Source: Nitrosopumilus sp.
GTDB lineage: Archaea > Thermoproteota > Nitrososphaeria > Nitrososphaerales > Nitrosopumilaceae
Assembly: GCA_965249555.1 (NCBI GenBank)
Contig: OZ252243.1
Span: 1,472,001 to 1,536,000 of the forward strand
DNA length: 64,000 bases
Direction of reading: 5' to 3'
A program made the translations under genes and the position numbers. Numbering within the stretch: the first letter of the stretch is position 1; each line of letters starts with the position of its first letter. Shown piece after piece: positions 2,197 through 26,217 of this stretch. The notes beneath the pieces were generated by a model. That model was given only the letters and a program-made list of their open reading frames with translations. It ran no database searches and had not been told where the DNA came from.

Positions 2197-2238
2197 ACTA
2201 CACTAAAAGTATCTCTTTGTTTTTTAGAAAATTTTTTC

Positions 2239-3701
2239 GTATGTATCAACCTTCACGCACAAATCAACACTATTACACAAAAAGATCTAAGATCAACTAA
2301 ATCATCATACAAAACATGTCAGGTTGTGGTCATGAGAAAATCATCATACAGCTACAAAAAAAGACAAAACAACAAGACGAAGTGATAAAACAACTACAAG
2401 CAGAGTCAAAACAACAAAAACTAATCATAGAGAATCTCATAGAATCAAACAAGGAACTGCAAAAAAAGCTGTCATATTATGAGAATGCGCACTCTCCGCC
2501 ATCAAAGAATTCCCTTGAATGGAGAAAGCAAAAAAGACAACACAGACAGCCAGGCAAATCAAGACGTGGTGGAATAGCAGGACACGTTGGCAAGACACAG
2601 AAATTCAGACCAACTAGCACCAAACACCACAGATCAGATGCATGTCCTAAATGCGGTAGTGAAAATATTCATCAAACCAAAACCTGCAAAAGGATAATGG
2701 TTGAGATTCCTCCACCAACACCCTACGGTATAACTGAGCATGTTTTGAATCAATACATCTGCATGGACTGTTCTGATAATTTTCAAACCACGGGAAACCT
2801 TCCATCACATGGATGTTTTGATGGTTCAGTGATACGTGAGGTAGTCTCACTGTTCTCAAAGAGATTGACATACGATGCTATCAGAGCCACACTCTATGAA
2901 AGATATGGATTAGAAATCAGCAATACAACCGTACAATCCATTCTTCGCAACGGTAGTGTGATGTTAGAGTCATTTTACAATACAATCCACAGCGAAATCG
3001 TGACTGAAAAGATTCTCGGAATCGATGAGACAGGATTTTCAATTGATGGAGATACTGGATGGATGTGGGTTGCAAGAAGCAAGACTAGTGCACAGTATGC
3101 CTTGGAGTACAGCAGAGGTGCCAATGTTCTAAAAAAGTACTGGAAGAAATTCAAAGGAACCCTAGTGTCTGACGGATATGCTCCGTACAGGACAGTATTT
3201 TGTGATAACACAAAGCAGAGATGCACCGCACACCTGCAGCGCGATGCCAAATATCTGGCAATAAAATCAAAGGACAAAAAGGCCAGGATTCTATATGAGA
3301 AACTCTCAGGGATGCTAGGTCATGCCAGGGTTTGGAGTGTAGGTAATCGTCATACAAAACGGCGGGAAACGTACAGGAATGATTTACTAAAACAGCTGGA
3401 CCGTATCATTGCACGATATTTGAAAGGTGATACGGAGATGGTTCAGTTTGGCAAGAAGCTAAAGACTGCAAGGAACAGCATGTTTACGTTTGTCATGGAT
3501 GGTGATGTCCCGTCAACTAACAATGATGCAGAGAATTCCATTCGAAAGTGCGTGATGCAGAGGAATGTTCGCGGGCAGATGAAGAGTGATCAGGGCATGA
3601 GGATGATCTCAGTCTTTCTCACATGCTTTGAGACATGGAGAATAAGGGAATTGAACATGTTTTCTGAGATGGCAAAATACATCTAAGTGCTTAATACATA
3701 C
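2239..3701 (+). mobile_element. Complete single-ORF IS66-family element (ISBst12-like organisation)
   Basis: TIRs GTATGTATCAA / TTAATACATAC; 8-bp target duplication ATTTTTTC at 2231-2238 and 3702-3709. Confidence 0.92.
2316..3686 (+). CDS. IS66-family DDE transposase
   Basis: Coiled coil, SPPS, CPKCG Zn finger, IDETG, SDGY, CTAH, TNNDAEN motifs. Confidence 0.95.
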   Translation: MSGCGHEKIIIQLQKKTKQQDEVIKQLQAESKQQKLIIENLIESNKELQKKLSYYENAHSPPSKNSLEWRKQKRQHRQPGKSRRGGIAGHVGKTQKFRPTSTKHHRSDACPKCGSENIHQTKTCKRIMVEIPPPTPYGITEHVLNQYICMDCSDNFQTTGNLPSHGCFDGSVIREVVSLFSKRLTYDAIRATLYERYGLEISNTTVQSILRNGSVMLESFYNTIHSEIVTEKILGIDETGFSIDGDTGWMWVARSKTSAQYALEYSRGANVLKKYWKKFKGTLVSDGYAPYRTVFCDNTKQRCTAHLQRDAKYLAIKSKDKKARILYEKLSGMLGHARVWSVGNRHTKRRETYRNDLLKQLDRIIARYLKGDTEMVQFGKKLKTARNSMFTFVMDGDVPSTNNDAENSIRKCVMQRNVRGQMKSDQGMRMISVFLTCFETWRIRELNMFSEMAKYI

Positions 3702-3806
3702 ATTTTTTCTTAGTTTTAAGATTAACAACAAATTTGTTTGCTTTGACAATTTCATCTTTACAAGTGCCAACTATTAGAGCAATTACACTTTTGTGATTGC
3801 ATTTCT

Positions 3807-4106
3807 TTATGCAGTTAGCGGTAAGAGATCTATTTGAACTCCAAGGGGAGTTTCCAAACTGACTAAATCTTTTGCATCTGTAAGAATACCTTCAATGGAA
3901 AGAGAATATATTTTGAGATCTTCATTATCACAACCACGTAGATTTGGTTGGTTCTTAATCAAACCATCTTCTTTTATTGGATCGCCATTAACAATAATAT
4001 CAAATTTATGAGAATGTTTTACAATTGTCTTTACAGCGCTTTTAACATTGGATTCATTATAGCCAGTAAATGCTATTTGCATTAGTTTTTGCATTTTACT
4101 TCTCAT
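3807..4106 (-). CDS. uS10 (ribosomal S10/NusE)-like paralog
   Basis: 99 aa; QIAFTGYN..VK..V..IV......I.VNGDPI and LVSLETPLGVQIDL follow the uS10 pattern; recognised by eye. Confidence 0.55.
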   Translation of the reverse strand: MRSKMQKLMQIAFTGYNESNVKSAVKTIVKHSHKFDIIVNGDPIKEDGLIKNQPNLRGCDNEDLKIYSLSIEGILTDAKDLVSLETPLGVQIDLLPLTA

Positions 4107-4143
4107 CTTTTTATTTCTGGTACGTTTAAAGATATTGTTTTCA

Positions 4144-4310
4144 GGTACTGTTAACTTTACGGGATCTCTCCAAATTGCTGTTAAGTCGAGACCTATGAAT
4201 TTTCTCCTGATTTTTCAAGACTGTTAACTTTGTGATCTAATACAAGTCCGATTTGAAAGGGATTCAGACGTGAGTATATGAAAATAGATTAACTGTTAAC
4301 TTTGTGATCT
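4144..4310 (+). repeat. Three spaced direct repeats ACTGTTAACTTT(GT)GATCT, period 72-73 bp
   Basis: CTGTTAACTTT starts at 4148, 4221 and 4293. Confidence 0.8.
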
Positions 4311-4333
4311 GATAATCGTGTAAAAATTTGGAT

Positions 4334-4555
4334 TTAATCTAGAGATGCTTGTTCCCACTGCTGTCGGCTTGGAACCCAAATAAATCCCCTTAATGACAGA
4401 ATATCGTTAATTCTTCTCCAATATTTTTTGTCAATCCAATCAGTTATCGGAATAACGGCTATTTTATTTTCATTTTCGTTAATCTTGACATATTTGCATA
4501 GTTTGCCTAAATTTCCAGATATGCTATTCATATGTATCTCCTTGGATAGAGGCAC
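4334..4555 (-). CDS. Hypothetical protein
   Basis: 73-aa ORF with plausible composition. Confidence 0.45.
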   Translation of the reverse strand: MPLSKEIHMNSISGNLGKLCKYVKINENENKIAVIPITDWIDKKYWRRINDILSLRGFIWVPSRQQWEQASLD

Positions 4556-4841
4556 TCATACAAGTAATCATATTGCAGATCTTTGTTTTTGAGTAATTTG
4601 TGATATTTTTGCATCGTATCGTAAGCGTATTTGGAATCCAAGCCAACATCGTAAATAATTGTTAAAGAACCATTGGAATCCAAATTTAAGAAGAATTGTG
4701 TTGATCTCTGCCCATACAGCATTACCAATTCATCCCTTTGGCTTAATCTGCATGCATCCATCATTACATGTTATCTCTACATATTTTATGAGTTCTCCCA
4801 ATATGGAAGAAGGTTCAGTACTCTTTGTTGATTTATGTCTG

Positions 4842-5798
4842 TTAGAGGCAGCTGCATTTATGAGACTGATATTTTTTTGAAATGTCTACATTGTCAAGAC
4901 CTGCAACAAATGCTGGTGTCTTTCCCTCAAGACCCATATGTGGTCTTACAAAGTTATGATGTATTCTAAGCAAGTCTGCATAGATCTGAGATGAATCATC
5001 ATTGTCTAATCCCCTGCGCACCTTCAGATTGGCAGATATTTCATTTGATATTTTTGTAGCCAAAAGAAATCGTGTTTTAGGATCAATTGCAGACCAAAGC
5101 CAATTATAGTATCCTTTCTTTGAAATAGGTTCAGTTTTTCTTACATTGATCATCTTTTCATCAACTGACCAAGCATTACCAATTGTAGGTTTGAGTGTAT
5201 CCACATATTCTTTAATTGTAATGCTATATTTTTTTATCCAGTATCCTATAGTCACATGAGATATCCGTATCCCTCTTACATTTGAGAGATGTTCTGCTGT
5301 GTTGCGCAAAGACATTCCAGACATGATCAAATTTAATGCCTCTGAGATCATACTTGGCTCAAATTTTACTTTTGCAAATCCACTTTCAGAATTTGTAAAT
5401 TTTCTGTCACAGTCTTTACACCCATATATTTGTAATTTTCCCCTATACTTGGTTTTTCTAAATCCTTTTTTGACTATTTTTGTAGATGAACAATATACAC
5501 ATATTGAAGGAATTTCTAACATTGGTTTTTTAAAATTCGATGTTACATCCTGTGAACCATGTAAAAACTCATGTACATACAGTATGTGACTGCATCTCTT
5601 ATCATCATTTCCACTTCGTAATCTGTCAATAAAATCATAGCATTGGCATGTCCACACATCAGATTTTAGCGTCTTTGTCACAGTATACCTCATTTGGTTT
5701 TTCTGAGAATCTACTTGATAGCGATTATTGTTAATACGTTTCACTGTATAATGCTTAAAGGCGTTTTTCTGTACCGTCTGTGTATGTTGTTTTACCAT
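4842..5798 (-). pseudogene. SWIM/Zn-ribbon IS6 (IS240)-type DDE transposase with internal deletion
   Basis: CQC...CSH SWIM, CVYC/CKDC ribbon, HTH, WSVDE, WLWSAID, HNFVRPH..L.GKTPA; the segment with the second Asp and the Glu appears missing. Confidence 0.8.
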
Positions 5799-5885
5799 AT
5801 TACCATTATACCATATAATTAAAAGGTATAAAAAGATAATGGTAATTACCGCCAAATTTAATTATGAGGTAGATTGACACTTGTT

Positions 5886-6032
5886 ATGGGAGAGAAGGCC
5901 AAGACCTCGATTAACGTGGACAAGGACATCTGGGTCAGGTGGATCAAGTTTGTTGTAAACAAGACAGGCTCTGCACGCAAGATAAGCGAAGAACTAGAAA
6001 AAGCTATACTGGAATATATGAAGCGAAAATAA
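5886..6032 (+). CDS. Small ribbon-helix-helix DNA-binding protein (not in ORF track)
   Basis: MGEKAKTSINVDKDIWVRWIKFVVNKTGSARKISEELEKAILEYMKRK; alternating beta strand followed by two helices. Confidence 0.7.
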   Translation: MGEKAKTSINVDKDIWVRWIKFVVNKTGSARKISEELEKAILEYMKRK

Positions 6033-6259
6033 GCATCTTGAAAGTTTTGATACACATTATTCTAATGTGTCATTTGATTGATTTTATTATTTTTATTTCA
6101 TCTTCTCCTACATTTGATTTAGGTTAATTTTGATTAGTTTAATTTTAATTTATTTCATCAATTTAATTTATAAGTCGACTCATGTATTTGAGAGAAAATT
6201 GTTGTAGAGAAGGGTTTGGTTTCAATCTTTATCCATTTTTTTTCTTCTATAAAAAATCG

Positions 6260-9200
6260 TTAAATTTTTTCGTATTCTATTAATACTTGATTTTTAAATT
6301 CCTTTGCAACAATAGGAAAATTATCTAGAATATATCCCAAGTTTTCTTTTGATATATTGCAAATTTTTGTAGCATATGCATTAATTTGTGCCATCAATTC
6401 ATTTCGTTCAATTTCATTAGTTACTACATCATTGATTTTGAGTTCATTTTTTATATCTTCATACTCTTGTGTGATACAAATTAATCTTGCAACTCTATTA
6501 GCAATTTCCAGAAGTAATGGATCATCCTCTGTTAATTTTGGAACTGTAATTTCTTTAACATAAAACATGTTAACGTTAATTGCAACTTTATGTCTAATCA
6601 AAAAATCAATAACAAATGAATTTAGCATTCCACATAAGTAAAGTAATTCTTTATAACTCAAAAACTTTTCAAATTTTGAACCATTAAAAAATATTGGTCT
6701 TATGTAATTTAATGAATTTCCTAAATATACATTTGGAGGTAAAATGGTACAGATTAATGTACGCTGATTTGTTGCATTACTTATCAGTCTCCATCCAATT
6801 CGGAAATGATCAGCAGGGATTTGTAGTTGTATGGATTTAGATTTTTTATTATTTTTACTCAAGATTCTATTTACTTTTGTTTTTTCTCTACTTGAAATTG
6901 CATTTCGAGCTTTTCCAAAATCTATCCAGTATCTTGGTTTTTTAAAAGTATGTGTAAATTGATGAATCATTTTCCCTTCAAATAAAACAGCTCCATTTCC
7001 TTCAGTATTAAAAATAGGAGCATCATCTGTCATGTTAAATTCTCGTTGAAATTCTAAACCCCATTCAGGATATGATAAAGCTGAAAACTCGCTCATCTTT
7101 TTGAAAATCTCTACATCTTTTTTATTACTACATTCAATAATTGATAGAGCAATTGGGGAAAGTTTTCTTACAATTTCAATATCATAATCTATAGATTCTG
7201 TTTTCATTCTTGAGAGTTGATCTGCATCTTGAAGATAAAATGCAGATTTGAAAACAGATGTTTTGGATCCTTTTGAGAAAATCAATGTAATAAATTTGAA
7301 TTGTCTGTGTATTTCTTTAAAAATTCCCTTTCTATTTTCAAACCCATAAAGTGAAATAATTTTATTTTTATTGAACAACATATTTCGTAATCCATTAGAA
7401 CCTAAATCAGTATATATTCCAGAAGGTAAAATAACACCTGCAATGCCATTTTTTTTCAAGAGGTGATAATATTTTTCAACAAATAATTGATATAGATTAG
7501 ATTTGATCTTATTTCGTTTAACAGCTATTTGTGGAATCTGATATGTATATTGTGAACTATTTTTAAAAAATTCTTGTTGAATGTCTATGTCACTATTGTA
7601 TTTTTTCCAATTACTTGAAATTTCTGAATTCTCTAACAGTTTTTTAATAATTTCATTTTTCTCAGATTTTTTCAGCGATGTAAATTTTTGTAATTTATCT
7701 GAATTATGTAATAAGCCAAAAAATTCATTAATATTTGGTTCTAAAATCTCCCAAGGCGGATTCCCAACCACAGCATCAAATCCAGGATTTTTCTTCCGTT
7801 TCCCATTTTCATCATAAAAGATGTCAGGAAACTCCAAGTCCCAATGGAAGAACGAATGCTCTGAGGCAGTTTCCTTAACCTGTTGCCATCTCTCATCGGA
7901 ATAAAAGTCGAGGCTGTTCTCGCCGATTTTTGTGACAAAATCACCTATCGGAGGCACATCTACATCAAATGACTTGGCCAGTTTGGCATCTAGTAGGAAC
8001 TTTAGATCATAGTATACGGTTCCTTTTGACTGCATGCTGCCATATTTTACAATCTTTGTCTTTACTGCCTGAGCAGTGTCGTCTTCCCATGTCTCAAGCA
8101 TGATGAAATCTCTCACGGTTTTCTTAAAGCGTGTGCGTCCCTTGGTTGATTCCATCAGTGTTGTCTGTTTCTCAAGTATGTCATCAATGCTAGAGCCAAT
8201 CAATGAGTTACCTGATTTTATATGTGCACTCAAAAATGACAATGGTTTTTCAGAAGAAAGGGTTTCAAGCCACAGTGAGACACTGGCAAGATCAACTGCA
8301 AGGGGGTTTATGTCAACCCCATAAATGCACCGTCTGGCAACATCTCTCTTTCTCTCCACAAATGCAAGTTCAGTTATTTCATCTTTGTGTTCTATCTGGC
8401 AGATTCTTCTTGCAATATAGTTTGTTGCACCAACCAGAAAGTGACCGGACCCCATTGCAGGATCCAAGACATTTAGAGCAAGTATTTGATCAACCTGCTC
8501 ACTAGGATCATCTGTTTTCTTTATTATATCATCAATTAATGGACCTATCGCATTTTCCACAATATAGTCTACAATATACTTTGGCGTGTAATAACTTCCA
8601 GTGGATTTTCTTTCTTTTGGATTTGGCAGGTCAGATACTTTGCCGTCTTTTACAGTGAGATGATATTCCAAAAGATGCTCATAAATGGATCCAAGATGAC
8701 GGGTCTCAAGTGCAGCATAGTCTAAAAAGAAATAATTCCCTTTTTTATCTCGGGTTCTAGTCAACAAGCTTATTGCATCAAGAAGATTCTTGTTTGGAAT
8801 CTTCCATTTTTCTAGATTGGAATGGATTTTTCTGTCAAATAATCTTCCATAGTATGAACGCATGGAAAACTTTTTTGGATCATAGTCCAGATCCTCACTA
8901 CCCATCTCAATTAACCTGAATAGTTTTTTCAGTCTTTCATGAACCTGATATTTAACAACATCATGATCAGATTTTAAAATCCATTGTGATTTTATCCATT
9001 TGAGGCTAAAGTTATCGTGATAGAATTTCTCATCTGGAAACACCGAACGGTCTTCTGCATAAAGGACAAACATGATCCTATAAAGTAAAATAAATGAGGG
9101 CTCTCGAATATCTTCAAGTGTTTGTTCATCCAAAGTAAGATTATTTGATTTATCCAAAATAATTCCCTCAGATAATATCTTTAATGCCTCAAACACATTT

Positions 9201-9697
9201 ACTGTTAACTCATCATGAATCTGGATTGCAAATGAATCAAAAGCATCAGATACTTTGGATACAATTGATGATGCAATTGAATCCTCATCAACTCTGATTT
9301 TTTCAAGAAAATCTACAAAAGTTTTTGGAACACCTGTGTCTGACTTGATGTCTATTGGAACATGCCTTGTCTCTGAGAATGATTTTGAGAATTCCTTTGA
9401 AAGGCTTGAAAATACCCACTTGAATCCGCCTGGATTGTGCGAGCATACCATGGCAAATCCATGATTGTCTTTGATTATTTTTGTGGAGATTCCTTTCCAT
9501 TCTCTTAAAGAATCTGTGTTTGTCTGGACATAGTAAATTTGATAATCATTTTTGCTTGCAATTATTCTTGCTTCTGAAACTGTTTCCTTTTGCTTGTCAT
9601 TCCAATTGTCCTTATTTACTGGCTTGTCTGCAAAATCAAAGTTTAGTTCTGAAAACAAGTTTCGTAACGAGTTCAGATCTTTTAACCTGTATGCCAA
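6260..9697 (-). CDS. Eco57I/Type IIG-like amino-DNA methyltransferase with C-terminal TRD (expressed allele A)
   Basis: LGSIYE, GSYYTP, VLDPAMGSGHFL (motif I), IYGVDIN, GNSL, FHWDLEFP, FDAVVGNPPW (motif IV), then TRD. Confidence 0.93.
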   Translation of the reverse strand: MAYRLKDLNSLRNLFSELNFDFADKPVNKDNWNDKQKETVSEARIIASKNDYQIYYVQTNTDSLREWKGISTKIIKDNHGFAMVCSHNPGGFKWVFSSLSKEFSKSFSETRHVPIDIKSDTGVPKTFVDFLEKIRVDEDSIASSIVSKVSDAFDSFAIQIHDELTVNVFEALKILSEGIILDKSNNLTLDEQTLEDIREPSFILLYRIMFVLYAEDRSVFPDEKFYHDNFSLKWIKSQWILKSDHDVVKYQVHERLKKLFRLIEMGSEDLDYDPKKFSMRSYYGRLFDRKIHSNLEKWKIPNKNLLDAISLLTRTRDKKGNYFFLDYAALETRHLGSIYEHLLEYHLTVKDGKVSDLPNPKERKSTGSYYTPKYIVDYIVENAIGPLIDDIIKKTDDPSEQVDQILALNVLDPAMGSGHFLVGATNYIARRICQIEHKDEITELAFVERKRDVARRCIYGVDINPLAVDLASVSLWLETLSSEKPLSFLSAHIKSGNSLIGSSIDDILEKQTTLMESTKGRTRFKKTVRDFIMLETWEDDTAQAVKTKIVKYGSMQSKGTVYYDLKFLLDAKLAKSFDVDVPPIGDFVTKIGENSLDFYSDERWQQVKETASEHSFFHWDLEFPDIFYDENGKRKKNPGFDAVVGNPPWEILEPNINEFFGLLHNSDKLQKFTSLKKSEKNEIIKKLLENSEISSNWKKYNSDIDIQQEFFKNSSQYTYQIPQIAVKRNKIKSNLYQLFVEKYYHLLKKNGIAGVILPSGIYTDLGSNGLRNMLFNKNKIISLYGFENRKGIFKEIHRQFKFITLIFSKGSKTSVFKSAFYLQDADQLSRMKTESIDYDIEIVRKLSPIALSIIECSNKKDVEIFKKMSEFSALSYPEWGLEFQREFNMTDDAPIFNTEGNGAVLFEGKMIHQFTHTFKKPRYWIDFGKARNAISSREKTKVNRILSKNNKKSKSIQLQIPADHFRIGWRLISNATNQRTLICTILPPNVYLGNSLNYIRPIFFNGSKFEKFLSYKELLYLCGMLNSFVIDFLIRHKVAINVNMFYVKEITVPKLTEDDPLLLEIANRVARLICITQEYEDIKNELKINDVVTNEIERNELMAQINAYATKICNISKENLGYILDNFPIVAKEFKNQVLIEYEKI
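7753..7942 (-). repeat. 190-bp inverted repeat, copy 1 (within the MTase gene, DFVTKIG...GNPP)
   Basis: Exact reverse complement of 15461-15650. Confidence 0.97.
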
Positions 9698-9723
9698 AGT
9701 TTCTAGTTTTTTATCAGCCAGAT

Positions 9724-12700
9724 CTAATCTCTCACATATTTGCTGTACAGAATTCGAGGTGAGCTATTCTCTTCTTCGTTTTGTTTTATTTGGTTTTGTA
9801 TCTTATAGTGCAGATACAACTGGCTAAGATGTTGTAGTAACTCCGAATCATGCATTTTACTTTTCTTAATTTTTAGTAATTCTTTGTTTAGTCTTCTCTT
9901 TAGAATGGGAATGGAATATGCCTTTCGCAGCGTTTCAATATCTTCTTTTTTATCCAAAAATTCTTTGATGCTATCCATTTTTATCAGTTTTTCAAGTACC
10001 CATCTCTGTGCCATACTTAATCGTACACTTGATTCCCTAGCTTGGATCTGTTCTGTGTCTTCAACAAATTTCTTCCAACCCACAGATACTAGTTTGTCAT
10101 AGTCTGAAGGAGTAGAATAAACAGCTTCGTCGTCTGATTCTAAAATTTCCAAGGCTTTTTGTATTCTTATCTCTTTGATCTCTTCTTTTGTATTAATCAT
10201 ATAGTATTTCCTTACTTTACCGCTTCGCTCAGTTCCACTTTCACATGCCAAAAGCAACTGACCGCCTGATTTTACATTATCTGAGCTTCTTATGCCGTTT
10301 GGAATTGTTCTTATCTCCTCCCAAAATTCTGGTTTGTTTACTTGTATATCTTGCAGGATTTTCTCAAATTTTGATGGCTCTAAGGGATTCACTTCTTCTC
10401 TATCTAGAATTGATTCATCACACTTGTAAATTGCATAAGTGTCTTTAGTATTGATTGATTCTTCTGGTTTGAGTATTTTATAGTCTTCTCCTATTATTTG
10501 ATGTATTTTATCAATTTTGGCATCAACATGCTCTTCAAGTTTAAAATCCTTTTTCATTTCTAGATCTAACAGAAAATTATGCACTATAACAAATTCATTC
10601 TGACTTCCAATTCTATCTACTCTTCCTGCTCTTTGAATTAACCTAGTTGGATTCCAGTGAAAATCATAATTAATTATAACCTCACCCGCTTGAAGGTTTA
10701 CTCCTTCAGATAATACATCAGTAGTAATCAATAAAGAAATTTGTTCAGATTTTTCCAGTTTTGATTCATTACTTGGATTATTGACAGGATCAAACCTTCT
10801 TGCACATTCTATAGCATTTCCAGTAACAGAATCTACCCGCTCTTTGATTCCATTCCATCGTACATAATCACTTAGATATTTTACAGTAGTGGCAAACTCT
10901 GAAAATATGAGAACTTTCTTTCCAGAATATTCGTTATCAAGTAGATCTTGTAGTATGCGCAACTTGTTATCTGTCTTCCATGTGAGTCTGTGAATTAAAC
11001 CATCAATTGTCTCAAATATCTCAATATCGTTTTGAATGTCTGAAGTTAATTTTTCAATGTCAAATGCCTCAAATTTGTATTTTGTCTCACCAGATTCCTG
11101 AATCTTTTTTCTAAATTCATCAATAGTTTCAGGATCGTTTATGGAATCCGGATCAGACTGTGCAATTTCATACATTTCCTTGTAAGACACATCTCCTATT
11201 GGGATAATCCCTTCATCTAATAATTTAAGAAAAATCTTATGACTGTCAATATAATGTCTGATGCTTTGTTTGAATGCTTCAAGACTACTTTCCATTCTTT
11301 TTAGCAATAATGTTCTGATTAATCCTATGAGTTTTTTCCCAGCAATTCCTAACTCTTTGTATAATTCGACATTTTTGTATTCATCTTTTAGATACAATCC
11401 CAAGCTATATCTGGCAAGAGTAAGAGTTTTTACATCTGGGTTTGATTCTGGCTTGGCAAGATAACCTACAATCGTCTTAAATTTTCTTTGATAGACTGCG
11501 TTAATATCATATCTCTCTATTCTCATTTTACGTTTAGGGAAATACTTGTTTTCACCCCCGACTTGCAGATATTTTCTGTCATTTTCGTCCACTTTGCCCC
11601 ATTGACTTAGAACATATCTTCGAGTTCGTCTAATCATGATGTTTCTGAGCAGATCCACCAAGCTAGCATCGCCATTTTTTATTTGTCCAAAGTATCTGTC
11701 AAGATCAGTCTCATTTGCAGGTGGGATAGATGTTTTTGATGTCTGATGAAATAACATTATCTGGTTTTTAATATCCATTTCTTTGTTGGAGTATGGGGTT
11801 GCAGTAAGTAGAATTGCTTTTGCATCTTGAGCCTGCATGAATTGATAGAGGTTTTCATACTGTCTTGAATCACTGTTTCTGAAATGATGACTCTCATCAA
11901 TTAGCACCAAATCCCTACTATTGTATCTGTAATCCTGATACAATTCAAAATTTTCCTGTGATAGCTTACCTCGTGATAAAATCTTTGCATCTACCTCATA
12001 ATCCTCACAGAATTTTTCCCACATGGGAATTAGTGGTGGTGGACAAATAATCAAAGGTCTGTACTCTTGCCGTTGTAAATATTTTAGCAATGCTATTCCA
12101 ACATATGTTTTTCCCAATCCTACAACATCGCCAATTATCACTCCTCCATACAACTCAAACATTGTAAGACCCTGATCAACTGCATTTCTCTGAAATGGAA
12201 ATAGTTTTGGAAATTTTTGTTTCCATATGGGATCAATCTCATGTTGTTCTTCCAGTTTGTCTTTATGTTCTAGATATGCAGCTTTTAGAAACAGGTCTTT
12301 AGAGGAGTAGATTTTTCCTGCCCATGAATTTGTTAATATTAAATTAAAATCTTCGGTGAACTCTAGTCCGTCTTTCCATAATTCATTAAACCAATTTAAA
12401 AGCTGGTTAACATCTGGAGAATTATATGTTTTGAGATTTAATTCGCTGTTTTGCGAGATGCCTGCAATCGATAGATTACTAGAACCCACAATGCCCATAC
12501 CTTGGGAAAAATCAGTATCTTTTGGCTGGAAGATGTAGGCCTTTGCATGGAGTTTCTCTTTTGGATATACCCGAACTTCTAGCTGTTTTGTTTTCATCAT
12601 TTCAATGAGTAACTCTACCACTGTTTTATCTTCACTAGTCTGACTCATGTGTTCTAAAGACTGTTTTATGTTGTCTTTAGAGTCCAAGATCACATTAGTT

Positions 12701-12984
12701 TTTCTATCCTCATTTACAAAATTTTTCTTATCAACTTCAGTTTGTACTTCCTTGATACTATGAAATCCTTCAATTAGAGCTTCGGCAGTTGTCTTGTCAG
12801 TGGTATTTGAGATTAGCAAACGAACCTTGTTTATGTCCTTTAGGGATTGAATTATTACAGATAATCCAGAAATGAAAAAATACCCTACTGCAATACTTGC
12901 ATTTTCAGTCTTTGGTAAAATCTTTAGCAGTTCATCTTTTAGAATTACCTCCTTGTTGTCAATTACATTATCTTCTCGAAGCAT
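9724..12984 (-). CDS. PLD-nuclease / SNF2-family helicase fusion
   Basis: LHAKAYIF + GSSNLS (PLD); GDVVGLGKT, DESHH, LTATP, SEGVNLQ, QRAGRVDR. Confidence 0.93.
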   Translation of the reverse strand: MLREDNVIDNKEVILKDELLKILPKTENASIAVGYFFISGLSVIIQSLKDINKVRLLISNTTDKTTAEALIEGFHSIKEVQTEVDKKNFVNEDRKTNVILDSKDNIKQSLEHMSQTSEDKTVVELLIEMMKTKQLEVRVYPKEKLHAKAYIFQPKDTDFSQGMGIVGSSNLSIAGISQNSELNLKTYNSPDVNQLLNWFNELWKDGLEFTEDFNLILTNSWAGKIYSSKDLFLKAAYLEHKDKLEEQHEIDPIWKQKFPKLFPFQRNAVDQGLTMFELYGGVIIGDVVGLGKTYVGIALLKYLQRQEYRPLIICPPPLIPMWEKFCEDYEVDAKILSRGKLSQENFELYQDYRYNSRDLVLIDESHHFRNSDSRQYENLYQFMQAQDAKAILLTATPYSNKEMDIKNQIMLFHQTSKTSIPPANETDLDRYFGQIKNGDASLVDLLRNIMIRRTRRYVLSQWGKVDENDRKYLQVGGENKYFPKRKMRIERYDINAVYQRKFKTIVGYLAKPESNPDVKTLTLARYSLGLYLKDEYKNVELYKELGIAGKKLIGLIRTLLLKRMESSLEAFKQSIRHYIDSHKIFLKLLDEGIIPIGDVSYKEMYEIAQSDPDSINDPETIDEFRKKIQESGETKYKFEAFDIEKLTSDIQNDIEIFETIDGLIHRLTWKTDNKLRILQDLLDNEYSGKKVLIFSEFATTVKYLSDYVRWNGIKERVDSVTGNAIECARRFDPVNNPSNESKLEKSEQISLLITTDVLSEGVNLQAGEVIINYDFHWNPTRLIQRAGRVDRIGSQNEFVIVHNFLLDLEMKKDFKLEEHVDAKIDKIHQIIGEDYKILKPEESINTKDTYAIYKCDESILDREEVNPLEPSKFEKILQDIQVNKPEFWEEIRTIPNGIRSSDNVKSGGQLLLACESGTERSGKVRKYYMINTKEEIKEIRIQKALEILESDDEAVYSTPSDYDKLVSVGWKKFVEDTEQIQARESSVRLSMAQRWVLEKLIKMDSIKEFLDKKEDIETLRKAYSIPILKRRLNKELLKIKKSKMHDSELLQHLSQLYLHYKIQNQIKQNEEENSSPRILYSKYVRD

Positions 12985-13144
12985 CTTAATTATGAAATGT
13001 TCCTAACCCTAAGATAAAGTTGACTAACACAATGTGATTTTTTTTGGATCAGTATTGAAAGACAACATAACTGTAGTTAGAAATAACATAGAATCGATAT
13101 TTTTCTTACATTTGTTGTGATATAGTCATTCTAAAAATCATAAT

Positions 13145-14059
13145 GTGATTATGTATATGTTAGATAATGGCAAACAAAACACTAGAACACTATTAGCGTA
13201 TATGTCAATATTGAGCATGAAATCAAAGTCAACTCAAAAATTATTCCAGTGTACAATAAACAACATAGAAACCTTTGGTAAGATAGATGTCAAAAACATA
13301 TCAATATATGATGAAGATAATATCTATGATATTCTTCAAGAATGGATAATCTGGAACAGTAAACGTGGGATAACTGCTTCAAGTATAATGTGTTATTTTA
13401 ACAACCTCAGGTCCTATCTTTGGTATCGCAGAATAAAGCTTGATTGTAGAGAGATAAAACATAATCTAAGATTTCCACAAACATTGCACGAATATGAAAT
13501 TCCAATAACTGTAGGTGCAATAGGGAAAATTCTTCGTGTGTCAGAATTGGAATTTCGATTTCAACTCTTGGCTTTGATATCAAGTGGAATGAGAGTAAGT
13601 GAACTAGGGCAGATAAGACTAGCACATCTCGATCTTACACGTACAAATGTAATGGTACTACTTCCTGCTAAAATAACAAAAACAGGCAGATCACGTATAA
13701 CATTTTTTTCAAAACAAGTTTCAGATATGATACGTTACAGAATTAAAATTCATAAATCCGATTTTATATTCTGTGGAAATAGAACACGAGAGCAAGCCCT
13801 CAATCTTGTTCTAAAACGTTTTGCAGCTGCAAGAAAAAAAGCTGACCTGATGGAAAAATACAGTCACTGTAAACAAAACAGATACAGAATTCATGTTCAT
13901 AGTATGAGATCATACTTTATAACAAAGGCAAACAACATACAGTTTGGATTGGGTCATATTCTTGCAGGGCATAATTTTTACATGAAGGAATATAACAAGT
14001 ACACTGTTGACGAATTACTTTCCATGTACAAAAAATTTGAAAAGGATGTAACATTTTAA
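13145..14059 (+). CDS. Tyrosine recombinase/integrase (candidate invertase)
   Basis: SGMRVSE (R), ITKTG (K), HSMR (HxxR), LAGH (H), MKEY (Y); true start may be a downstream ATG. Confidence 0.9.
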   Translation: MIMYMLDNGKQNTRTLLAYMSILSMKSKSTQKLFQCTINNIETFGKIDVKNISIYDEDNIYDILQEWIIWNSKRGITASSIMCYFNNLRSYLWYRRIKLDCREIKHNLRFPQTLHEYEIPITVGAIGKILRVSELEFRFQLLALISSGMRVSELGQIRLAHLDLTRTNVMVLLPAKITKTGRSRITFFSKQVSDMIRYRIKIHKSDFIFCGNRTREQALNLVLKRFAAARKKADLMEKYSHCKQNRYRIHVHSMRSYFITKANNIQFGLGHILAGHNFYMKEYNKYTVDELLSMYKKFEKDVTF

Positions 14060-14153
14060 AAAATATAGATATAATTGCCAAAATTTCGAAATTATTTTTT
14101 ACTTTTCTAGTATCTTGTCTTTAAGAAATCAAATTGCTGTAATCTAATTTTGT

Positions 14154-15230
14154 TCACAATATGTTTTCTAAATCTTCTTTTGTTGTTTCACTATCTTCAT
14201 CTGTTATTTCAACAGAGCCTTTGGGTTCTATCATATATGCTAAAGAATTCTCATCACAATCATACAGGGCTAAAATATCCGAGTCTTTAACACTTGATGT
14301 CATATGTTCTCTCTCTGATAAATTAGTTTTCATATGAGAATCACAATTCCAAGGGCAATTGGCAACAAATACCAGTGTGTATCTAGCACGTATGGAATAA
14401 TTGTTAGTCAATTGTGGAAGTAATAACGATCCGCCAATTACAAATAATCCGATTTCTATTTGTTTGGTAAATATTCCAACATCTGGAGGATCGCCCAAAA
14501 AAACAATGTATTTGAGTGCAACAATTACAGAAGACAGACCAGCAAGTGCAAAAAGACCTATCTTTGTGGGTGCAGTAGAAGTACGTGTGGGTTTAAAGGA
14601 ATACGAAATCTCAAAACTCTCCTCAATATCGGATATTATTCGAAATAAATTAGAGTTGTAGGTTCTGAATTTTTGTACGTACTCTGGCTGTTGATAACTC
14701 TGCTTTATTTTACCATCCTTGATGAAACCATATCGTGTTTGAGCAAAATCAAAGTCATTAGGTGTAAACAAAGTATAATACAAAGGATAGGGTTGTTTTT
14801 TAATTTTCATTTTCAAAACAGATCTTGGCGGATCTATATGATGTGGAGAATAGTTTAGAGTAAATGTTCTAACCTCATTTTTATACAATGATTTATTTTT
14901 TGGAATCTTAATCCATATCATGTGTAATTCCTCCGCATTTATTTTTGAATTAAAATGCTCTAGTTTTTCTTGTGTTTCATTGGAACTTTTTTCAATAAAA
15001 TGATTAATCAATTTTTTAACATCCCTTGTTGTCATAACAGGTAAAATGGAATCATCCTCATCTCGAACCAATAAGTTTAGCAAGAATTTATCTGACAGAA
15101 TTATGATGTTTGTCAATTCTTTTCTTTTTGATTTTATGGTATATTCGCTTACTATGCTTCGCTGTTCTTTATGATCATGTGAAATAAACAATCGTTGTCT
15201 TAGAATCTCTATCATAGAAGTAACTTGCAT
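14154..15230 (-). CDS. Hypothetical membrane protein, probably two genes fused by a frameshift
   Basis: C-terminal TM helices; another TM helix continues in a different frame near 14330-14375. Confidence 0.6.
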   Translation of the reverse strand: MQVTSMIEILRQRLFISHDHKEQRSIVSEYTIKSKRKELTNIIILSDKFLLNLLVRDEDDSILPVMTTRDVKKLINHFIEKSSNETQEKLEHFNSKINAEELHMIWIKIPKNKSLYKNEVRTFTLNYSPHHIDPPRSVLKMKIKKQPYPLYYTLFTPNDFDFAQTRYGFIKDGKIKQSYQQPEYVQKFRTYNSNLFRIISDIEESFEISYSFKPTRTSTAPTKIGLFALAGLSSVIVALKYIVFLGDPPDVGIFTKQIEIGLFVIGGSLLLPQLTNNYSIRARYTLVFVANCPWNCDSHMKTNLSEREHMTSSVKDSDILALYDCDENSLAYMIEPKGSVEITDEDSETTKEDLENIL

Positions 15231-15460
15231 CTAAAAACAACAAGTAAACATATCATTTTATCTGACAAGGTTTAGAAAAAACATTTTTTACTCCAAAACA
15301 TTGAACACCAAAAAATATTGTTAGAATTCAGAAATAATCTCTTGTCTTACAGATCGCTTGTTCTAATCAGAATACATCAGACAATCATAAAGCATTTAAA
15401 AATTCTTCGAGTATTTTTTTGCAAATTTTTAGAATTGTTTATTGAATCTTCAAACTGGCA

Positions 15461-15650
15461 GATTTTGTCACAAAAATCGGCGAGAACAGCCTCGACTTTT
15501 ATTCCGATGAGAGATGGCAACAGGTTAAGGAAACTGCCTCAGAGCATTCGTTCTTCCATTGGGACTTGGAGTTTCCTGACATCTTTTATGATGAAAATGG
15601 GAAACGGAAGAAAAATCCTGGATTTGATGCTGTGGTTGGGAATCCGCCTT
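15461..15650 (+). repeat. 190-bp inverted repeat, copy 2
   Basis: Exact reverse complement of 7753-7942. Confidence 0.97.
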
Positions 15651-16942
15651 ATAACAAAGAGATGAACAATAAAGTAATTTTTAAACCTATCAAGAGATCT
15701 CTTTATAAAAAATATCATCAAGGAAAAATGGATTATTGGTATTTCTTTATACATAGGGCCATAGATCTAACTAAAAACGAGGGAAGGTTCGGATACATTA
15801 CAAACAGTTATTGGATTAAATCAAAGGGCTCATCAAAATTGATTCAACGTATCAAAGAAAACCTAATTCTCACAAAATGTATTGATTTTGGTGGAATAAA
15901 AGTATTCAAAGAAGTAAATGACAAACATATGCTTCATTTCTATCTAAAAAAGAATTTTTCAAAAACAGATAAAACAACATATGTTTTATTAAACAAAGAA
16001 AATTTTAACGAACAAATAATAGAAGAATCACCTATTATCAAACCATTTCATGATGTAATAGATGATGATAATTTAGATTTTTCAAAAAATATAGGAATCA
16101 TTTTTACTAATTGTGATGAGTTAGCTATTTTTTATAATGTTAGTGTAGGAGTTCAAGAATCCCCTGATAAAATCAGTAAGAAAGCATTAGAAAAAAATAC
16201 AGACATTGGAATCAAAAAAGGCATGGGTGTATTTGTTATATCAAAATCAGAACTAGAACTATTACATCTAAGTAACAATGAAAGAAAAATAATTAAAAAA
16301 TACTTAGATCCTCACGATGTTGGCAAGTATTTTATAAAATTTAATGAACAGTATCTTATTTATTCAAATAGACTTACTAAAACAAAAATATCCAATGGTG
16401 ATTTTCCTAGTTTAAAAAAGCATTTAGATAAATTTGAAAAATTTATTACTTCTTCAAACAAGCCGTATGGAATTCATCGATTTAGAGAACAGAGATTTTT
16501 TGAAGACCCTAAACTGTTATGTAAATCTATGTTTAACATACCACAATTTTGCTATGATGACCAAAAACACTATGTAGGATTTTCATTTTCGTCAATAATT
16601 AATAAAAACCCAGATTATGATCTCAAATATTTATTGGGTCTACTAAATTCAACGTTAGCAAATTATTGGTTTCATAAAAAAGGTAAAAAAAGAGGCGGTG
16701 GATTAGATATTCTTGTTTATACTTATAGAAAATTTCCAGTATTCAAAGCTACATTTGGACAACAGAAAAAAATTGTGGATATGGTTAATAAATTACTAGA
16801 ATTAAACAAAAATCCATTAGATGGCATAAGAGAAGAAAACAAAAAAATTATGGAAAATTTAGATCAGTTTATTTTTAAAATGTATGAATTAAAACCAATA
16901 CATATAGCATACATTAAAAAGAATTTTAGTTCCATAATATAA
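15461..16942 (+). CDS. Silent alternative C-terminal cassette of the MTase (motif IV NPPY plus different TRD; allele B)
   Basis: Open frame from the repeat to 16942; in-frame TGA at 15443; lacks motif I; GNPPY, DYWYFFI, TaqI_C-like LKYLLGLLNS. Confidence 0.88.
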   Translation, partial: DFVTKIGENSLDFYSDERWQQVKETASEHSFFHWDLEFPDIFYDENGKRKKNPGFDAVVGNPPYNKEMNNKVIFKPIKRSLYKKYHQGKMDYWYFFIHRAIDLTKNEGRFGYITNSYWIKSKGSSKLIQRIKENLILTKCIDFGGIKVFKEVNDKHMLHFYLKKNFSKTDKTTYVLLNKENFNEQIIEESPIIKPFHDVIDDDNLDFSKNIGIIFTNCDELAIFYNVSVGVQESPDKISKKALEKNTDIGIKKGMGVFVISKSELELLHLSNNERKIIKKYLDPHDVGKYFIKFNEQYLIYSNRLTKTKISNGDFPSLKKHLDKFEKFITSSNKPYGIHRFREQRFFEDPKLLCKSMFNIPQFCYDDQKHYVGFSFSSIINKNPDYDLKYLLGLLNSTLANYWFHKKGKKRGGGLDILVYTYRKFPVFKATFGQQKKIVDMVNKLLELNKNPLDGIREENKKIMENLDQFIFKMYELKPIHIAYIKKNFSSII

Positions 16943-16954
16943 GTAATATGAAAA

Positions 16955-18328
16955 TTAAACAATTCTAACATCTGTGAATTTTACATAATCTCTTTTAATT
17001 ATATCCCAATACTCAAAATCAAAATTCAACATAGCCAAAAAGATCCTAGTAAGCAGTACAAAAATTCCCTTGTATGCTCTAAACAATATACTATCATCAT
17101 TTTCAACTGTTTTAACACGTCCCATATGCGTAATTTTGTTTCGAATTTTAATTATTTCTTCAAGGGTTATCTCAAGATCATCATATTTTATTTCCCAGTG
17201 TTCTAGCAACATTTTAGCTTTGTTACGATACGATCTTCTTTGCATCGCATCAATTCCATTATACATTAGACTTTGTGTTTTATCATCAACATTCATTTCA
17301 ATAAGAATTTGCTTCATTTGATTTTTAATTTTTTTCCTAAATTTTTCAAATTTGTCATCTGAGATTAAGAATTCTGTGTTATTGTCGAAATGAAATTTTT
17401 CTAAAAGAAGTTCTAAAGATGTTGTAGCACACAGAAATCTAGTTTCTAGGTTTCCAGAATTCCATGAATCTACATACCATTCTAGCGCATATGAAAAACC
17501 GTGTTTTTTATCGATCTTTTTAGAATATCCTTTTAACACAGATTTTAGGAAATAAGCAATACTGATTTTATCTGTTAAGCCAAAATTACCAGGTTGTTTT
17601 ATTTTAGTATGGATAATCTCAAAGAAAATCCTTGGCATTTGTTCATTGCATTTTATTTCATAAGCAGATACTGCCACTACACTATGCCAAGATGTCTGTG
17701 CAAGGCTTGTTAATTTTAAAAAATTAGCAATGAATTCTCTTGCCATCGTTATTGTTTCTTGAGTTGTTGTTACCTTATCTTTTGGAATGTGTAAAGATAT
17801 TACGGAAGTAATTAGCGGTGTATTATATTCCTTCATCATAGACTCTAGTTTCTCAATATCTCTGAAATGGTTAATTCTGAGTTCACCTATTTCAGTATCT
17901 AAAATAACTCTAAAAGTTGAGAACATATTGGTAACATAAAATTTAATTTGAATTCCTTTGGAATCTCTACTAATTTCTCTATATGGAAACTCTAGTTTCC
18001 CTATAGAAATTTTTGCTTTTACTGAAATTACTTTGTTCCATTTTTCATGTATTCCAGTAATAAAACATTCTTTTGCTGCAACATTCTCTCCTTCCTTATT
18101 GATCCCTCTAATTTTGAAATGTTCTGATCTTCTAAGATATTCTAATAATTTAGGGTTCTTAATATTTATAAATTCTAACTCGCCAGTGGTAATTCCATTC
18201 TGATTAAGCTTTATCCAAAACTTTACATTATTTTCAAAACCATCCTCACAAATTATTTTACCTTCTCCTAAAGTTTCAAAAATAGGTTTTAAAATTTCTT
18301 TATCTATTTTTTTATTTTTCTTTGACAT
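16955..18328 (-). CDS. ApeA-like HEPN-domain protein (putative antiviral RNase)
   Basis: 457 aa; C-terminal F...TSLE and RNKITH (RxxxxH) HEPN motif. Confidence 0.7.
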   Translation of the reverse strand: MSKKNKKIDKEILKPIFETLGEGKIICEDGFENNVKFWIKLNQNGITTGELEFINIKNPKLLEYLRRSEHFKIRGINKEGENVAAKECFITGIHEKWNKVISVKAKISIGKLEFPYREISRDSKGIQIKFYVTNMFSTFRVILDTEIGELRINHFRDIEKLESMMKEYNTPLITSVISLHIPKDKVTTTQETITMAREFIANFLKLTSLAQTSWHSVVAVSAYEIKCNEQMPRIFFEIIHTKIKQPGNFGLTDKISIAYFLKSVLKGYSKKIDKKHGFSYALEWYVDSWNSGNLETRFLCATTSLELLLEKFHFDNNTEFLISDDKFEKFRKKIKNQMKQILIEMNVDDKTQSLMYNGIDAMQRRSYRNKAKMLLEHWEIKYDDLEITLEEIIKIRNKITHMGRVKTVENDDSILFRAYKGIFVLLTRIFLAMLNFDFEYWDIIKRDYVKFTDVRIV

Positions 18329-19214
18329 GATATTAAATTAGTCTTCAATGAAATAAACTTAATCAAATCACGAGCCAATATCAAAGAAAATAGTATATCC
18401 CATTATTTTTAGAATCTAGAAAGTACAGATGTAAGAAACATAGAATGTTATTCAAAAAGATAGTTTCTTCCAACTCCAACATAGCGAATTTTTGACAGGT
18501 TTGAAATAACAGTATATCTACAATCTGACATATGATGAGATGTGAGAAAAACTATTGCCAGATATTTGATAATGTGATAGTGAATCTGTTTTAGCTCTTA
18601 ATTCTTGGCGCCAGATAATACTCGGCCCTTGCCATGGACTCCATCTCAAAGAGAAGATGCATTGGCGTCTGTGTCCCATATTCCATGTTGACATTCTTGC
18701 TTGCTTTGCTAATATTGCGGATAATTTTTGCCTGGCATAAGGGCGGAAAAACAATAGAGGAAAACTGCCAGATGCTTTGTGCAAAGGATAACGCCACCAA
18801 GTCAGGAAAATGACCTCAATCCTTAGAAGATCGTGTTTTGTGTCTATATCCCCAAGATTACACAGAACCTGTTTTCAAGCAAATTCTGTCCACTGTTAAT
18901 GAAGTTGCAATTGACAAATATTCGTGTACGTTCATTATGAATAACCTAGTATAATATAGTAAAACTACCTAAAAAGCAATAGTAGAAATTCTATTTATCC
19001 GTAATTCTATTTATTGGCCAATGCAGCATTTTGAATCCAGGCATCAAAAAGCATACTCCGTAAATAAACAACGGTAGTCCTATTATGAAATACACAGTTA
19101 AAGGATTCACATGGATACCAGAACCACCGAAGATAGTTAACTAGTTGTGACCATTGTAAAAATCTGGGCATAAAACGTATTTGTTTTGGTAAAATAAAAT
19201 ACCAAACATCGTAA

Positions 19215-19250: not shown

Positions 19251-19514
19251 ATGAATGAAATGATTCTCAAGAAGATAGAGCAAAAAATTCAAGATACAAT
19301 TTCAAACAAGGACGAAATTAGGCAATTAGTTCAATCACTCTCAAACATTGATGATTCAAAATCATTTGCTTTAGGTATTATCGTAGGCAGAATTTACAAC
19401 GCATTTTACTATCAATCCAAACGAATTCTTAATCGAGAACCAACTAAAGAGGAATTCCAAGAATTTTTAGAATTTATCAAAACCAAGAAATCTAATTTAG
19501 AAAATCTATGGTGA
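19251..19514 (+). CDS. Conserved thaumarchaeal hypothetical protein
   Basis: 87-aa ORF, GRIYNAFYYQ..RIL.REPT. Confidence 0.75.
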   Translation: MNEMILKKIEQKIQDTISNKDEIRQLVQSLSNIDDSKSFALGIIVGRIYNAFYYQSKRILNREPTKEEFQEFLEFIKTKKSNLENLW

Positions 19515-20015
19515 GGCTTTATTCCAATCAATCACTGTGATTGATGGTGTACCTGGTAGTTTTACACATGCTCCATGCAGTGCTTTTCTTGCTGCAGCTA
19601 AATGATCACTACCATTAACGTATAATTCCATTATGCATTGACCTTGTCTTACTCTGGCGCCTAAACTTGTGGCTTTGCCCCATGATCTTCTCATTCCCTC
19701 TGAAATTCTATCTGCACCTGCAGTTGCAATCTGTTTGTTTTCTCTTAAAAGATTGTGTGGGTAAATTCTTAATCTAGAATAATAACCTGTTTCTCCAGTT
19801 GTCTTCTCTAATGTTTTGTTTGCTGCCAATCTGGTTGATTCGATTGCCATGTGTCTGATCTGAAGTTTTTCATTTAGACTTAATTGAACACAATACTGGT
19901 ATGTTCCTCTTTTGCCACCTTGAAATTTTGCAATTTTAATTTGTGGCTTACCTTTGATGTACTCTTTTCTGGTAAAGACTTGTCCTCTTCCAGCCCTGTA
20001 ATTTGCACCATGCAT
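19506..20015 (-). CDS. rpl10e: 50S ribosomal protein uL16 (L10e)
   Basis: LRENK..AGADRISEGMRRSWGK signature. Confidence 0.97.
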   Translation of the reverse strand: MHGANYRAGRGQVFTRKEYIKGKPQIKIAKFQGGKRGTYQYCVQLSLNEKLQIRHMAIESTRLAANKTLEKTTGETGYYSRLRIYPHNLLRENKQIATAGADRISEGMRRSWGKATSLGARVRQGQCIMELYVNGSDHLAAARKALHGACVKLPGTPSITVIDWNKASP

Positions 20016-20114
20016 GATATCCTCAAACCAGAATGCCCATATTTTAACGGTTAACCAAGCACTTCTTCGTGCTTTCCAATGCTTATATGGAAATCCTTTG
20101 GCTTTCTCTTCATT

Positions 20115-26130: not shown

Positions 26131-26217
26131 AACATAATGAGATCCTTGGCTTTTTCTATTTGAATAATTTGAGAAATCGGTTAAAAATTAGAATGGATTA
26201 TGCTCATCTATGTGGTA

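Follow-up and report, generated by a model that had tools for sequence, protein, structure and literature searches.

A candidate invertible specificity switch at a methyltransferase and helicase-nuclease locus of Nitrosopumilus

Genes and inverted repeats at the locus

We describe a locus of Nitrosopumilus at which the gene for a large DNA methyltransferase (MTase) runs through one arm of a pair of inverted repeats, while genes for a helicase-nuclease and a tyrosine recombinase lie between the two arms. The locus was analysed in a stretch of 64,000 nucleotides (nt), called the window here, which is C1:1472001-1536000 of a genome assembled as a single 2.23-Mb contig. Coordinates are positions in the window unless another genome or locus is named, G-numbers stand for genomes of relatives and L-numbers for their loci. 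The features of the locus are collected in Table 1.

The two repeats are 190 nt long, 100% complementary and separated by 7518 nt; the repeat search thereby confirmed a perfect inverted pair that an earlier note on this DNA had reported. There are exactly two copies in the whole genome. The other inverted pairs found within 5000-18500 (n = 6) are 21-40 nt long and match at 70-90%, and since all six are short and imperfect, the 190-nt pair lies far beyond chance.

The left repeat (IR-L) and the right repeat (IR-R) encode an identical peptide of 63 residues and end one base past the NPP codons of motif IV, so that the next residue is W on one side (half A) and Y on the other (half B). Outside the repeat, halves A and B share no detectable similarity. 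The frame of half B is open for 493 codons from 15461 to a stop ending at 16942, and it is closed by an in-frame TGA located 5 codons upstream of the repeat. The frame offset is the same at both repeat sides, and the anatomy thus fits in frame: the constant N part of 585 codons is presently joined to 560 codons that end with half A, giving 1145 amino acids (aa), and would give 1078 aa with the 493 codons of the B frame. These codon counts agree with the two product lengths in the earlier note, which had also held that half B is no stand-alone MTase; Pfam indeed finds no S-adenosylmethionine (SAM)-binding N part in it, and the upstream stop points the same way. The inner 7518-nt segment carries the helicase-nuclease, the 585 MTase codons, the tyrosine recombinase and an open reading frame (ORF) of no assigned family, ORF358. 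Inverted repeats that run into both a coding gene and an opposite partial copy, with a recombinase close by, are the layout by which gene-altering programmed inversion loci have been defined (Milman et al. 2023), and this layout was found both in the window and in three other species.

Table 1. Features of the locus, in window coordinates
Feature	Coordinates	Strand	Basis or remark
Expressed MTase, 1145 aa (N part, repeat peptide, half A)	6260..9697	-	ORF, translation, Pfam, PADLOC
Half A, remaining catalytic domain after NPP(W) and specificity part, now fused	6260..7752	-	translation, TIGR02987
IR-L	7753..7942		within expressed gene; 190 nt, 100%; two genomic copies
Constant N part, 585 codons (N domain, SAM-binding motifs)	7943..9697	-	translation, Pfam
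HKD/PLD nuclease and SNF2 helicase, 1086 aa	9724..12984	-	upstream of MTase, same strand; Pfam, PADLOC
Divergent intergenic region, helicase/recombinase	12985..13144		presumed promoters, from gene positions
Tyrosine recombinase, 304 aa, candidate invertase	13145..14059	+	Pfam Phage_integrase, fold match; divergent from helicase
ORF358, putative accessory passenger of the presumed invertible segment	14154..15230	-	no Pfam, NCBIfam or PADLOC family
Non-coding stretch, inner side of IR-R	15231..15460		in-frame TGA 15443-15445 closes B frame
IR-R	15461..15650		start of silent frame; 190 nt, 100%
Half B, alternative C half after NPP(Y), silent in present orientation	15651..16942	+	Pfam, open frame

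The 1145-aa MTase was assigned by Pfam to Eco57I (1e-22), N6_Mtase and MmeI_Mtase, and by PADLOC to REase_MTase_IIG (5e-84) and DrmMI (4e-65), while a profile search against the PDB gave MmeI as its sole match, a weak one (E 0.008). Half A is covered by the NCBIfam model TIGR02987 (Alw26I/Eco31I/Esp3I family MTase) over residues 628-1144, at a score under the curated cut-off, and half B matches the C part of Eco57I (1.2e-25) and the TaqI_C specificity domain (2.7e-12) in Pfam. As in Type IIG enzymes, an N6-adenine MTase and a specificity domain reside in one chain (Pfam, PADLOC, and TaqI_C in half B). An endonuclease in the same chain was looked for in residues 1-350 of the MTase, where Pfam, NCBIfam and PADLOC found no nuclease family; the HKD/PLD domain, the sole nuclease domain at the locus, belongs to the helicase, which is a separate protein. 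Natural full-length MTases of 1087-1095 aa exist whose N part resembles this one (54% identity over 652 aa) and whose C half is of the B type (56-71%), and the predicted 1078-aa product therefore has counterparts of working length.

The helicase-nuclease has Pfam matches to PLDc_2, RE_NgoFVII, SNF2-rel_dom, Helicase_C and ResIII, and its PADLOC matches are C3a139 'HKD+Snf2' (2.6e-62) and DrmD (4e-32). The recombinase matches Pfam PF00589 (Phage_integrase) with 1.6e-13 and 51.2 bits against a cut-off of 27.1. Across 38 relatives of the recombinase, R150, K179, R255, Y279 and Y283 are invariant and H252 is nearly so, which leaves two tyrosines, Y279 and Y283, as candidates for the nucleophile. 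A search with phmmer against PDB sequences gave no match at E <= 0.001. An AlphaFold2 (AF2) model of the protein has a predicted local distance difference test (pLDDT) score of 91.7, and Foldseek matched it to XerA, the integron integrase (IntI), lambda Int, Tn1549 Int and Cre with probability 1.00 and E-values down to 6e-9. By its family and its modelled fold, the 304-aa protein is a tyrosine recombinase of the phage-integrase type.

Related loci and the proposed switch

Matches to the helicase were found in 36 of the 401 genomes of the family, its own genome included, and 20 loci were retrieved and compared. Three of them, from chromosome-level assemblies of other Nitrosopumilus species (G390, G410 and G423), likewise hold the N part, the helicase and the recombinase between inverted repeats. 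The repeats sit at the same codons as in the window and are 192 nt long with 93.2% identity in G390, 197 nt with 99.5% in G410, and 191 nt with 81.7% in G423. In all four complete loci, the window being the fourth, the recombinase is intact and divergent from the helicase gene. All eight outer halves are open over 419-561 codons, and each of the four silent halves is intact, with a stop 2-15 codons upstream of the repeat. The constant N part is 73-83% identical across five related loci, and half A shares 47.5% identity with the expressed half of G423. The fused half of G410 and the silent half of G423 are orthologous (66% identity over 421 aa), and their ratio of nonsynonymous to synonymous substitution rates (dN/dS) is 0.15 at a dS of 1.6.

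A further genome, G036, holds a remnant of the locus between fragments of insertion sequences (IS). This remnant (L015 6609-10477) is 94.6% identical to window positions 11795-15652; its helicase is cut after about 397 aa, frameshifts interrupt its recombinase and ORF358, and it closes at the outer repeat edge with 27 codons from the start of another half type. That half type is the one of G410 and G423, standing where the window has half B. The decay seen in G036 indicates that unused genes break fast in this setting. Identity between the window and G036 is 95.7-97.6% up to 15460 and 84.2% within the repeat from 15461, and there is none past the repeat. In three of the four loci the repeats are more identical within a genome than between species, and the repeat copies evolve in concert.

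Other relatives have simpler loci. G104 and G093 (the latter a Nitrosopumilaceae contig) have the helicase and a complete methylase (1137 and 1057 aa, respectively), the repeat segment occurs once and the recombinase is missing, and from their gene content we take them to be static homologues. In G138, on a contig of 12.7 kb, the helicase is 54% identical and the methylase more divergent, and neither a second repeat nor a recombinase is present. The remaining 14 of the 20 loci lack this N part, and their helicase homologues are distant (30-41% identical over the best aligned stretch).

The distribution of the recombinase follows that of the layout. Relatives more than 60% identical to it were found in five of the 401 genomes of the family and five of the 151 genomes of the genus, and these are the four complete loci and the G036 remnant, while all other matches in those genomes are at most 39% identical. 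The only further relative in its own genome is a split, broken-looking fragment. Public protein sets add about 60 recombinase clusters at 53-76% identity, which indicates that species representatives understate how common the module is in nature. More distant relatives (30-40% identity, 350-400 aa) are labelled integrases by their source records.

Taken together, the layout in four species with all four silent halves intact, the recombinase tied to the locus, the half that is fused in one species and silent in another, and the concerted repeats provide comparative support for a switch. We consider it likely that the locus works as a recombinase-driven, two-state invertible specificity switch. 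The tyrosine recombinase would pair the two 190-nt repeats and invert a 7.5-kb module consisting of the promoter region, the helicase, the first 585 MTase codons, the recombinase and ORF358. Each inversion would place either half A, as at present, or half B in frame behind the constant N part, and each half would supply the remaining catalytic motifs together with its own specificity domain. Because each half has its own specificity domain, a flip should change the sequence that is methylated; if the methylase directs the helicase-nuclease in the manner of Type ISP-like enzymes, the sequence that is restricted should change too.

Two of the related genomes contain further inverted structures. 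In G423, a second inverton (L045 2772-5790) is nested inside the expressed A-type half, with repeats at 3015-3250/5442-5677 (236 nt, 99%) and 2772-2895/5667-5790 (124 nt, 93%); the nested segment comprises an alternative 3' end (ORF 3018-3827, +) and a 306-aa tyrosine recombinase (ORF 3856-4776, -, PF00589 6e-7). The G423 locus could thus have three or more states. The earlier note had called the window locus a shufflon, a label that overstates a two-state switch there, although G423 has its nested inverton. G140, from a different genus of this family, has a distant HKD-SNF2 helicase alongside an MTase with ISP_coupler and Type_ISP_C domains (L047 3500-15100). A 311-nt, 100% identical inverted repeat (5233-5543/13048-13358) surrounds a 403-aa ORF, an IS240-like transposase, the helicase and the 5' part of the MTase gene, and outside the repeats lie an inverted, silent C part of 635 aa and a third Type_ISP_C copy (1824-3425).

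The second orientation and alternative explanations

The second orientation was sought in public reads, namely three runs of one study that are available as Logan contigs (k = 31), which were compared with 5000-18500. Every contig of the runs ends within 30 nt of a repeat edge (7782/7913 and 15490/15621), and the repeat forms a 190-nt contig of its own. Where a repeat exceeds k, both orientations yield one and the same graph, and k = 31 contigs are therefore blind to orientation. In all three runs, contigs cover both halves, the inner segment, the repeat and both repeat edges as separate pieces, with no other letters. The contig depth of the flanks differs from that of the inner segment, inconsistently across runs. 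Two apparent contig joints were disregarded, their sides being only 20-22 letters long, and a reading of the G036 remnant as lying in the opposite orientation relative to the flank, based on a 100-nt match, was dropped when the wider comparison gave no synteny and an IS-rich context.

The proposal of the earlier note, a two-state switch, has thus gained comparative support, while the inversion itself has not been seen. Several observations weigh against a working, recombinase-driven switch. No read or assembly with the second orientation is on record, the read contigs being those blind to orientation. A fusion of the N part with half B at high identity is missing from 5.8 billion protein clusters, where the best match is 71%, and no near-identical half B contig was found in metagenomes, where the best is 40%; both negatives weigh little, as the species was apparently sampled only once. 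No recombination core site can be called, since the stretches of 10-14 nt shared by both arms in every one of the four repeat pairs fall on conserved codons, which makes conservation of the repeat inseparable from coding conservation. The outer repeats of G423 are just 81.7% identical, and G140 has no tyrosine recombinase by Pfam, though its topology is the same. The flanks of the complete loci are non-syntenic, IS-rich islands, and the pattern of orthologous halves could alternatively have come from cassette exchange rather than inversion. Finally, the genome would be expected to be unmethylated at the new sites after switching, and no protective mechanism is evident.

The segment might also invert by host homologous recombination across the repeats, with the recombinase dispensable or otherwise used, for example as an island integrase. 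This is in our view an unlikely account. A perfect identity of 190 nt is long enough for it and the identity step at the repeat edge points to gene conversion, but the G423 layout has been kept at a repeat identity that makes a poor substrate for homologous recombination. Likewise, the G140 topology with its 311-nt perfect repeat indicates that a recombinase may be dispensable and homologous recombination may suffice, whereas in the Nitrosopumilus loci the recombinase subfamily is restricted to this setting (five of five), is missing from both static loci (G104 and G093), and is intact and divergent from the helicase wherever the locus is complete; the nested inverton of G423 even carries a recombinase of its own. 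Chromosomal inversions by homologous recombination are reported in archaea, as is the action of the pTN3 integrase on identical segments of at least 104 bp (PMC8371274).

An account that we hold to be less likely still is a static relic, in which half B and its repeat were left from a duplicated or acquired MTase and the recombinase is the integrase of a mobile island by the tRNA-Gly gene. It would agree with the single orientation on record, with a low-GC island from tRNA-Gly to rpl10e that contains IS66 and other transposases, with the decay of such a locus in G036, and with the name of integrase given to the distant recombinase relatives. However, a relic would not keep a 100% repeat and an open frame of 493 codons, nor an in-frame layout with open silent halves in four species, and a dN/dS of 0.15 was obtained for a half that is silent in one of them. 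A repeat of the tRNA-Gly gene of at least 12 nt, as would mark the island end, was not found within 1.1-22 kb, which counts weakly against an integrated island since attachment sites down to 8 bp are known in this phylum (PMC8371274). An assembly artefact, with the second repeat and half B misplaced or chimeric, is highly improbable: it has just the general risk of repeats in assemblies in its favour, and the genome is one contig, both halves, the inner segment and the repeat are all found, with no other letters, in contigs from three runs, and the layout recurs in three independent chromosome-level assemblies.

Known systems and the surroundings of the locus

Type ISP enzymes are single chains of a nuclease, an SF2 motor, a coupler, an MTase and a specificity domain; their nuclease is of the Mrr type and they recognize asymmetric sites. 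The locus in the window resembles them in combining a nuclease and an SF2 motor with an MTase and a specificity domain, but it encodes two polypeptides from two separate genes, its nuclease is of the HKD type, and Pfam found neither ISP_coupler nor Type_ISP_C in the MTase. Residues 38-215 of its N part align with the N part of the ISP_coupler MTase of G140 at 30% identity (E 3e-12, alignment of 198 aa). Because G140 pairs such a helicase with an ISP-domain methylase that is homologous in its N part, 'split Type ISP-like' is a fair functional description of the locus, not a statement of membership.

Several other defence systems were considered. Class 1 DISARM joins DrmA, DrmB (DUF1998) and DrmC to DrmD and DrmMI. 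No DrmA- or DrmB-like gene of Class 1 DISARM was found in the ORFs scanned at 1-30 kb, despite the DrmD and DrmMI profile matches, and the NCBIfam model DISARM_DrmD scored 123.9 bits against the helicase with a cut-off of 610. Neither PglZ nor BrxC of BREX is among the scanned neighbours, and PglX models of NCBIfam reached 25.6-54.9 bits against the MTase, with cut-offs of 400-900. An HKD-SNF2 helicase and an MTase are also found in Type-2 BREX-related (BR) systems, and no match to DUF499 or DUF3780 was found in 16 different ORFs scanned with Pfam. With the additional genes of BREX, DISARM and the DUF499-centred BREX-related systems absent among the scanned neighbours, the locus reads as a two-gene unit of helicase-nuclease and methylase that is restriction-modification (RM)-like. 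A paralogous pair lies elsewhere in the same genome (C1:1931022-1938378), with a helicase about 31% identical over the best aligned stretch and an MTase in a 1355-aa frame (33%); no inverted repeat was found in its MTase and no recombinase adjoins it, and the pair is apparently static.

Switches of this kind are known from bacteria, where programmed inversions that change MTase specificity have been studied well. Milman, Yelin & Kishony (NAR 2023; PMC9881135) used long reads to confirm programmed inversions in three classes of Type II RM enzymes: DrmMI of Class 1 DISARM and its like, PglX of BREX-1, and Cj0031 homologues (C. jejuni). Two loci of the Cj0031 class adjoin a coding sequence with phospholipase D and SNF helicase domains, one example being Bacteroides ovatus CP083813.1:5322008-5329826 (PMC9881135); CP044495.1 holds a further bacterial locus of that study. 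The claim of the earlier note that no such switch had been described for this helicase-MTase pair does not hold in view of these loci. They share with the window a PLD/HKD and SNF2 helicase by an Eco57I-type MTase, repeats inside the MTase gene, alternative parts and a recombinase close by. Their inversion is confirmed by long reads, whereas that of the window is deduced. The window module would flip the helicase, the 5' part of the MTase gene and the recombinase between two fixed 3' halves, while the bacterial loci, judged from table coordinates, appear to have their variable parts beside the target gene (PMC9881135).

The BREX-1 pglX and Class 1 DISARM drmMI genes are alike in encoding large, single-chain defence N6-adenine MTases that are altered by inversion (PMC9881135). 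The MTase of the window matches DrmMI and PglX profiles (PADLOC, NCBIfam) with NCBIfam scores far under the curated cut-offs, and the associated PglZ, BrxC, DrmA and DrmB genes are not among its scanned neighbours. The Type I hsdS invertons, such as SpnD39III/ivr of S. pneumoniae with PsrA/CreX, resemble the proposed switch in that inversion linked to a tyrosine recombinase within specificity genes yields alternative specificities in a clone (PMC4948785, PMC7096588, PMC7672463). In hsdS systems, however, a separate S subunit is shuffled and HsdR is the nuclease-motor, while in the window a single-chain MTase is split at motif IV, half of its catalytic domain would be exchanged along with the specificity domain, and the nuclease-motor is the HKD-SNF2 protein. 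The BR systems, which consist of a DUF499 ATPase, an N6-MTase, an HKD-Swi2/Snf2 helicase and DUF3780 and are reported from 119 archaeal taxa, have the same kind of effector, a Swi2/Snf2 helicase with an HKD nuclease at its N terminus, by an N6-adenine MTase (PMC12839542). They differ from the window in the DUF499 and DUF3780 components, and the words 'inversion', 'invertible' and 'recombinase' do not occur in that paper.

For Archaea, the record is sparse. The scan of PMC9881135 was of bacteria only and is stated not to cover archaea. Chanin et al. (PMC10028968) included 42 archaeal long-read sets (36 Euryarchaeota and 6 Crenarchaeota) with 12 putative invertons, and describe archaeal chromosomal invertons as 'only minimally investigated'. 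In the portions consulted, an archaeal RM survey (PMC10609329) has phase-variable systems only in its introduction and references, citing largely or exclusively bacterial surveys, a review of archaeal tyrosine recombinases treats inversions just as chromosomal rearrangements (PMC8371274), and a marine long-read study of structural variants, in which a Nitrosopumilus metagenome-assembled genome is included, does not mention the locus (PMC12379486). We found no archaeal or Nitrosopumilus case of such a switch in the literature, where the supplementary inverton tables of PMC9881135 and PMC10028968 might list one, and the earlier note's statement that it was undescribed in ammonia-oxidising archaea holds as far as the literature searches reached. 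What is new is the domain Archaea and the nitrifier lineage only; the kind of switch was already known from bacteria.

Within these bounds, we lean towards regarding the locus as the first programmed, recombinase-driven, phase-variable restriction/methylation switch in Archaea, present in several Nitrosopumilus species, run by a previously unnoticed clade of tyrosine invertases of about 300 aa, and developed into a multi-state shufflon in some genomes (G423). If this is true, ammonia-oxidising archaea would share a form of bet-hedging against viruses and foreign DNA with gut and pathogenic bacteria, and clonal populations of a globally abundant nitrifier would hedge between defence specificities. 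Several methylomes would be expected to coexist in their cultures and populations, with consequences for methylation-based binning, studies of viruses and their hosts, and any epigenetic regulation. The recombinase would also be a compact archaeal tyrosine invertase with natural substrates of 190 nt.

ORF358 has no counterpart in G390, is interrupted by a DDE transposase in G423 and carries a frameshift in G036, and because of this it is probably not part of the switch. A paralogue with 25% identity lies at 1066293-1067198 of the genome. On the other side of half B and convergent with it, a 457-aa ORF (16955-18328, -) matches no family of Pfam, NCBIfam or PADLOC; in the ESM Atlas its neighbours (score 0.97-0.98) are clusters with HEPN_Apea or ApeA_NTD1 in 14-46% of the members, a lead that it may be an ApeA-like defence protein.

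The locus is within a low-GC island (27-34%). On one side are a tRNA-Gly gene (1014-1088), an IS66 transposase (2316-3686) and an IS1/IS6-like ORF (4842-5855) with many genomic copies, and on the other side rpl10e (19506-20015) is followed by a tRNA-splicing endonuclease gene (region 19506-20678). Farther along the window, an IS element at 25066-26206 carries a DDE_Tnp_1 transposase (ORF 25114-26130, -); at least five copies or fragments of it, at about 75% identity, are found in the 100-kb region round the G036 remnant.

Beyond the window, the genome has 18 more inverted-repeat pairs of at least 80 nt with at least 95% identity and at most 20 kb apart, most of which are IS-sized (0.4-1.4 kb). 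Three short pairs are possible further invertons, at genome positions 1913779-1913970/1915747-1915938 (192 nt), 349788-349959/350192-350363 (172 nt) and 1239852-1240012/1247646-1247806 (161 nt).

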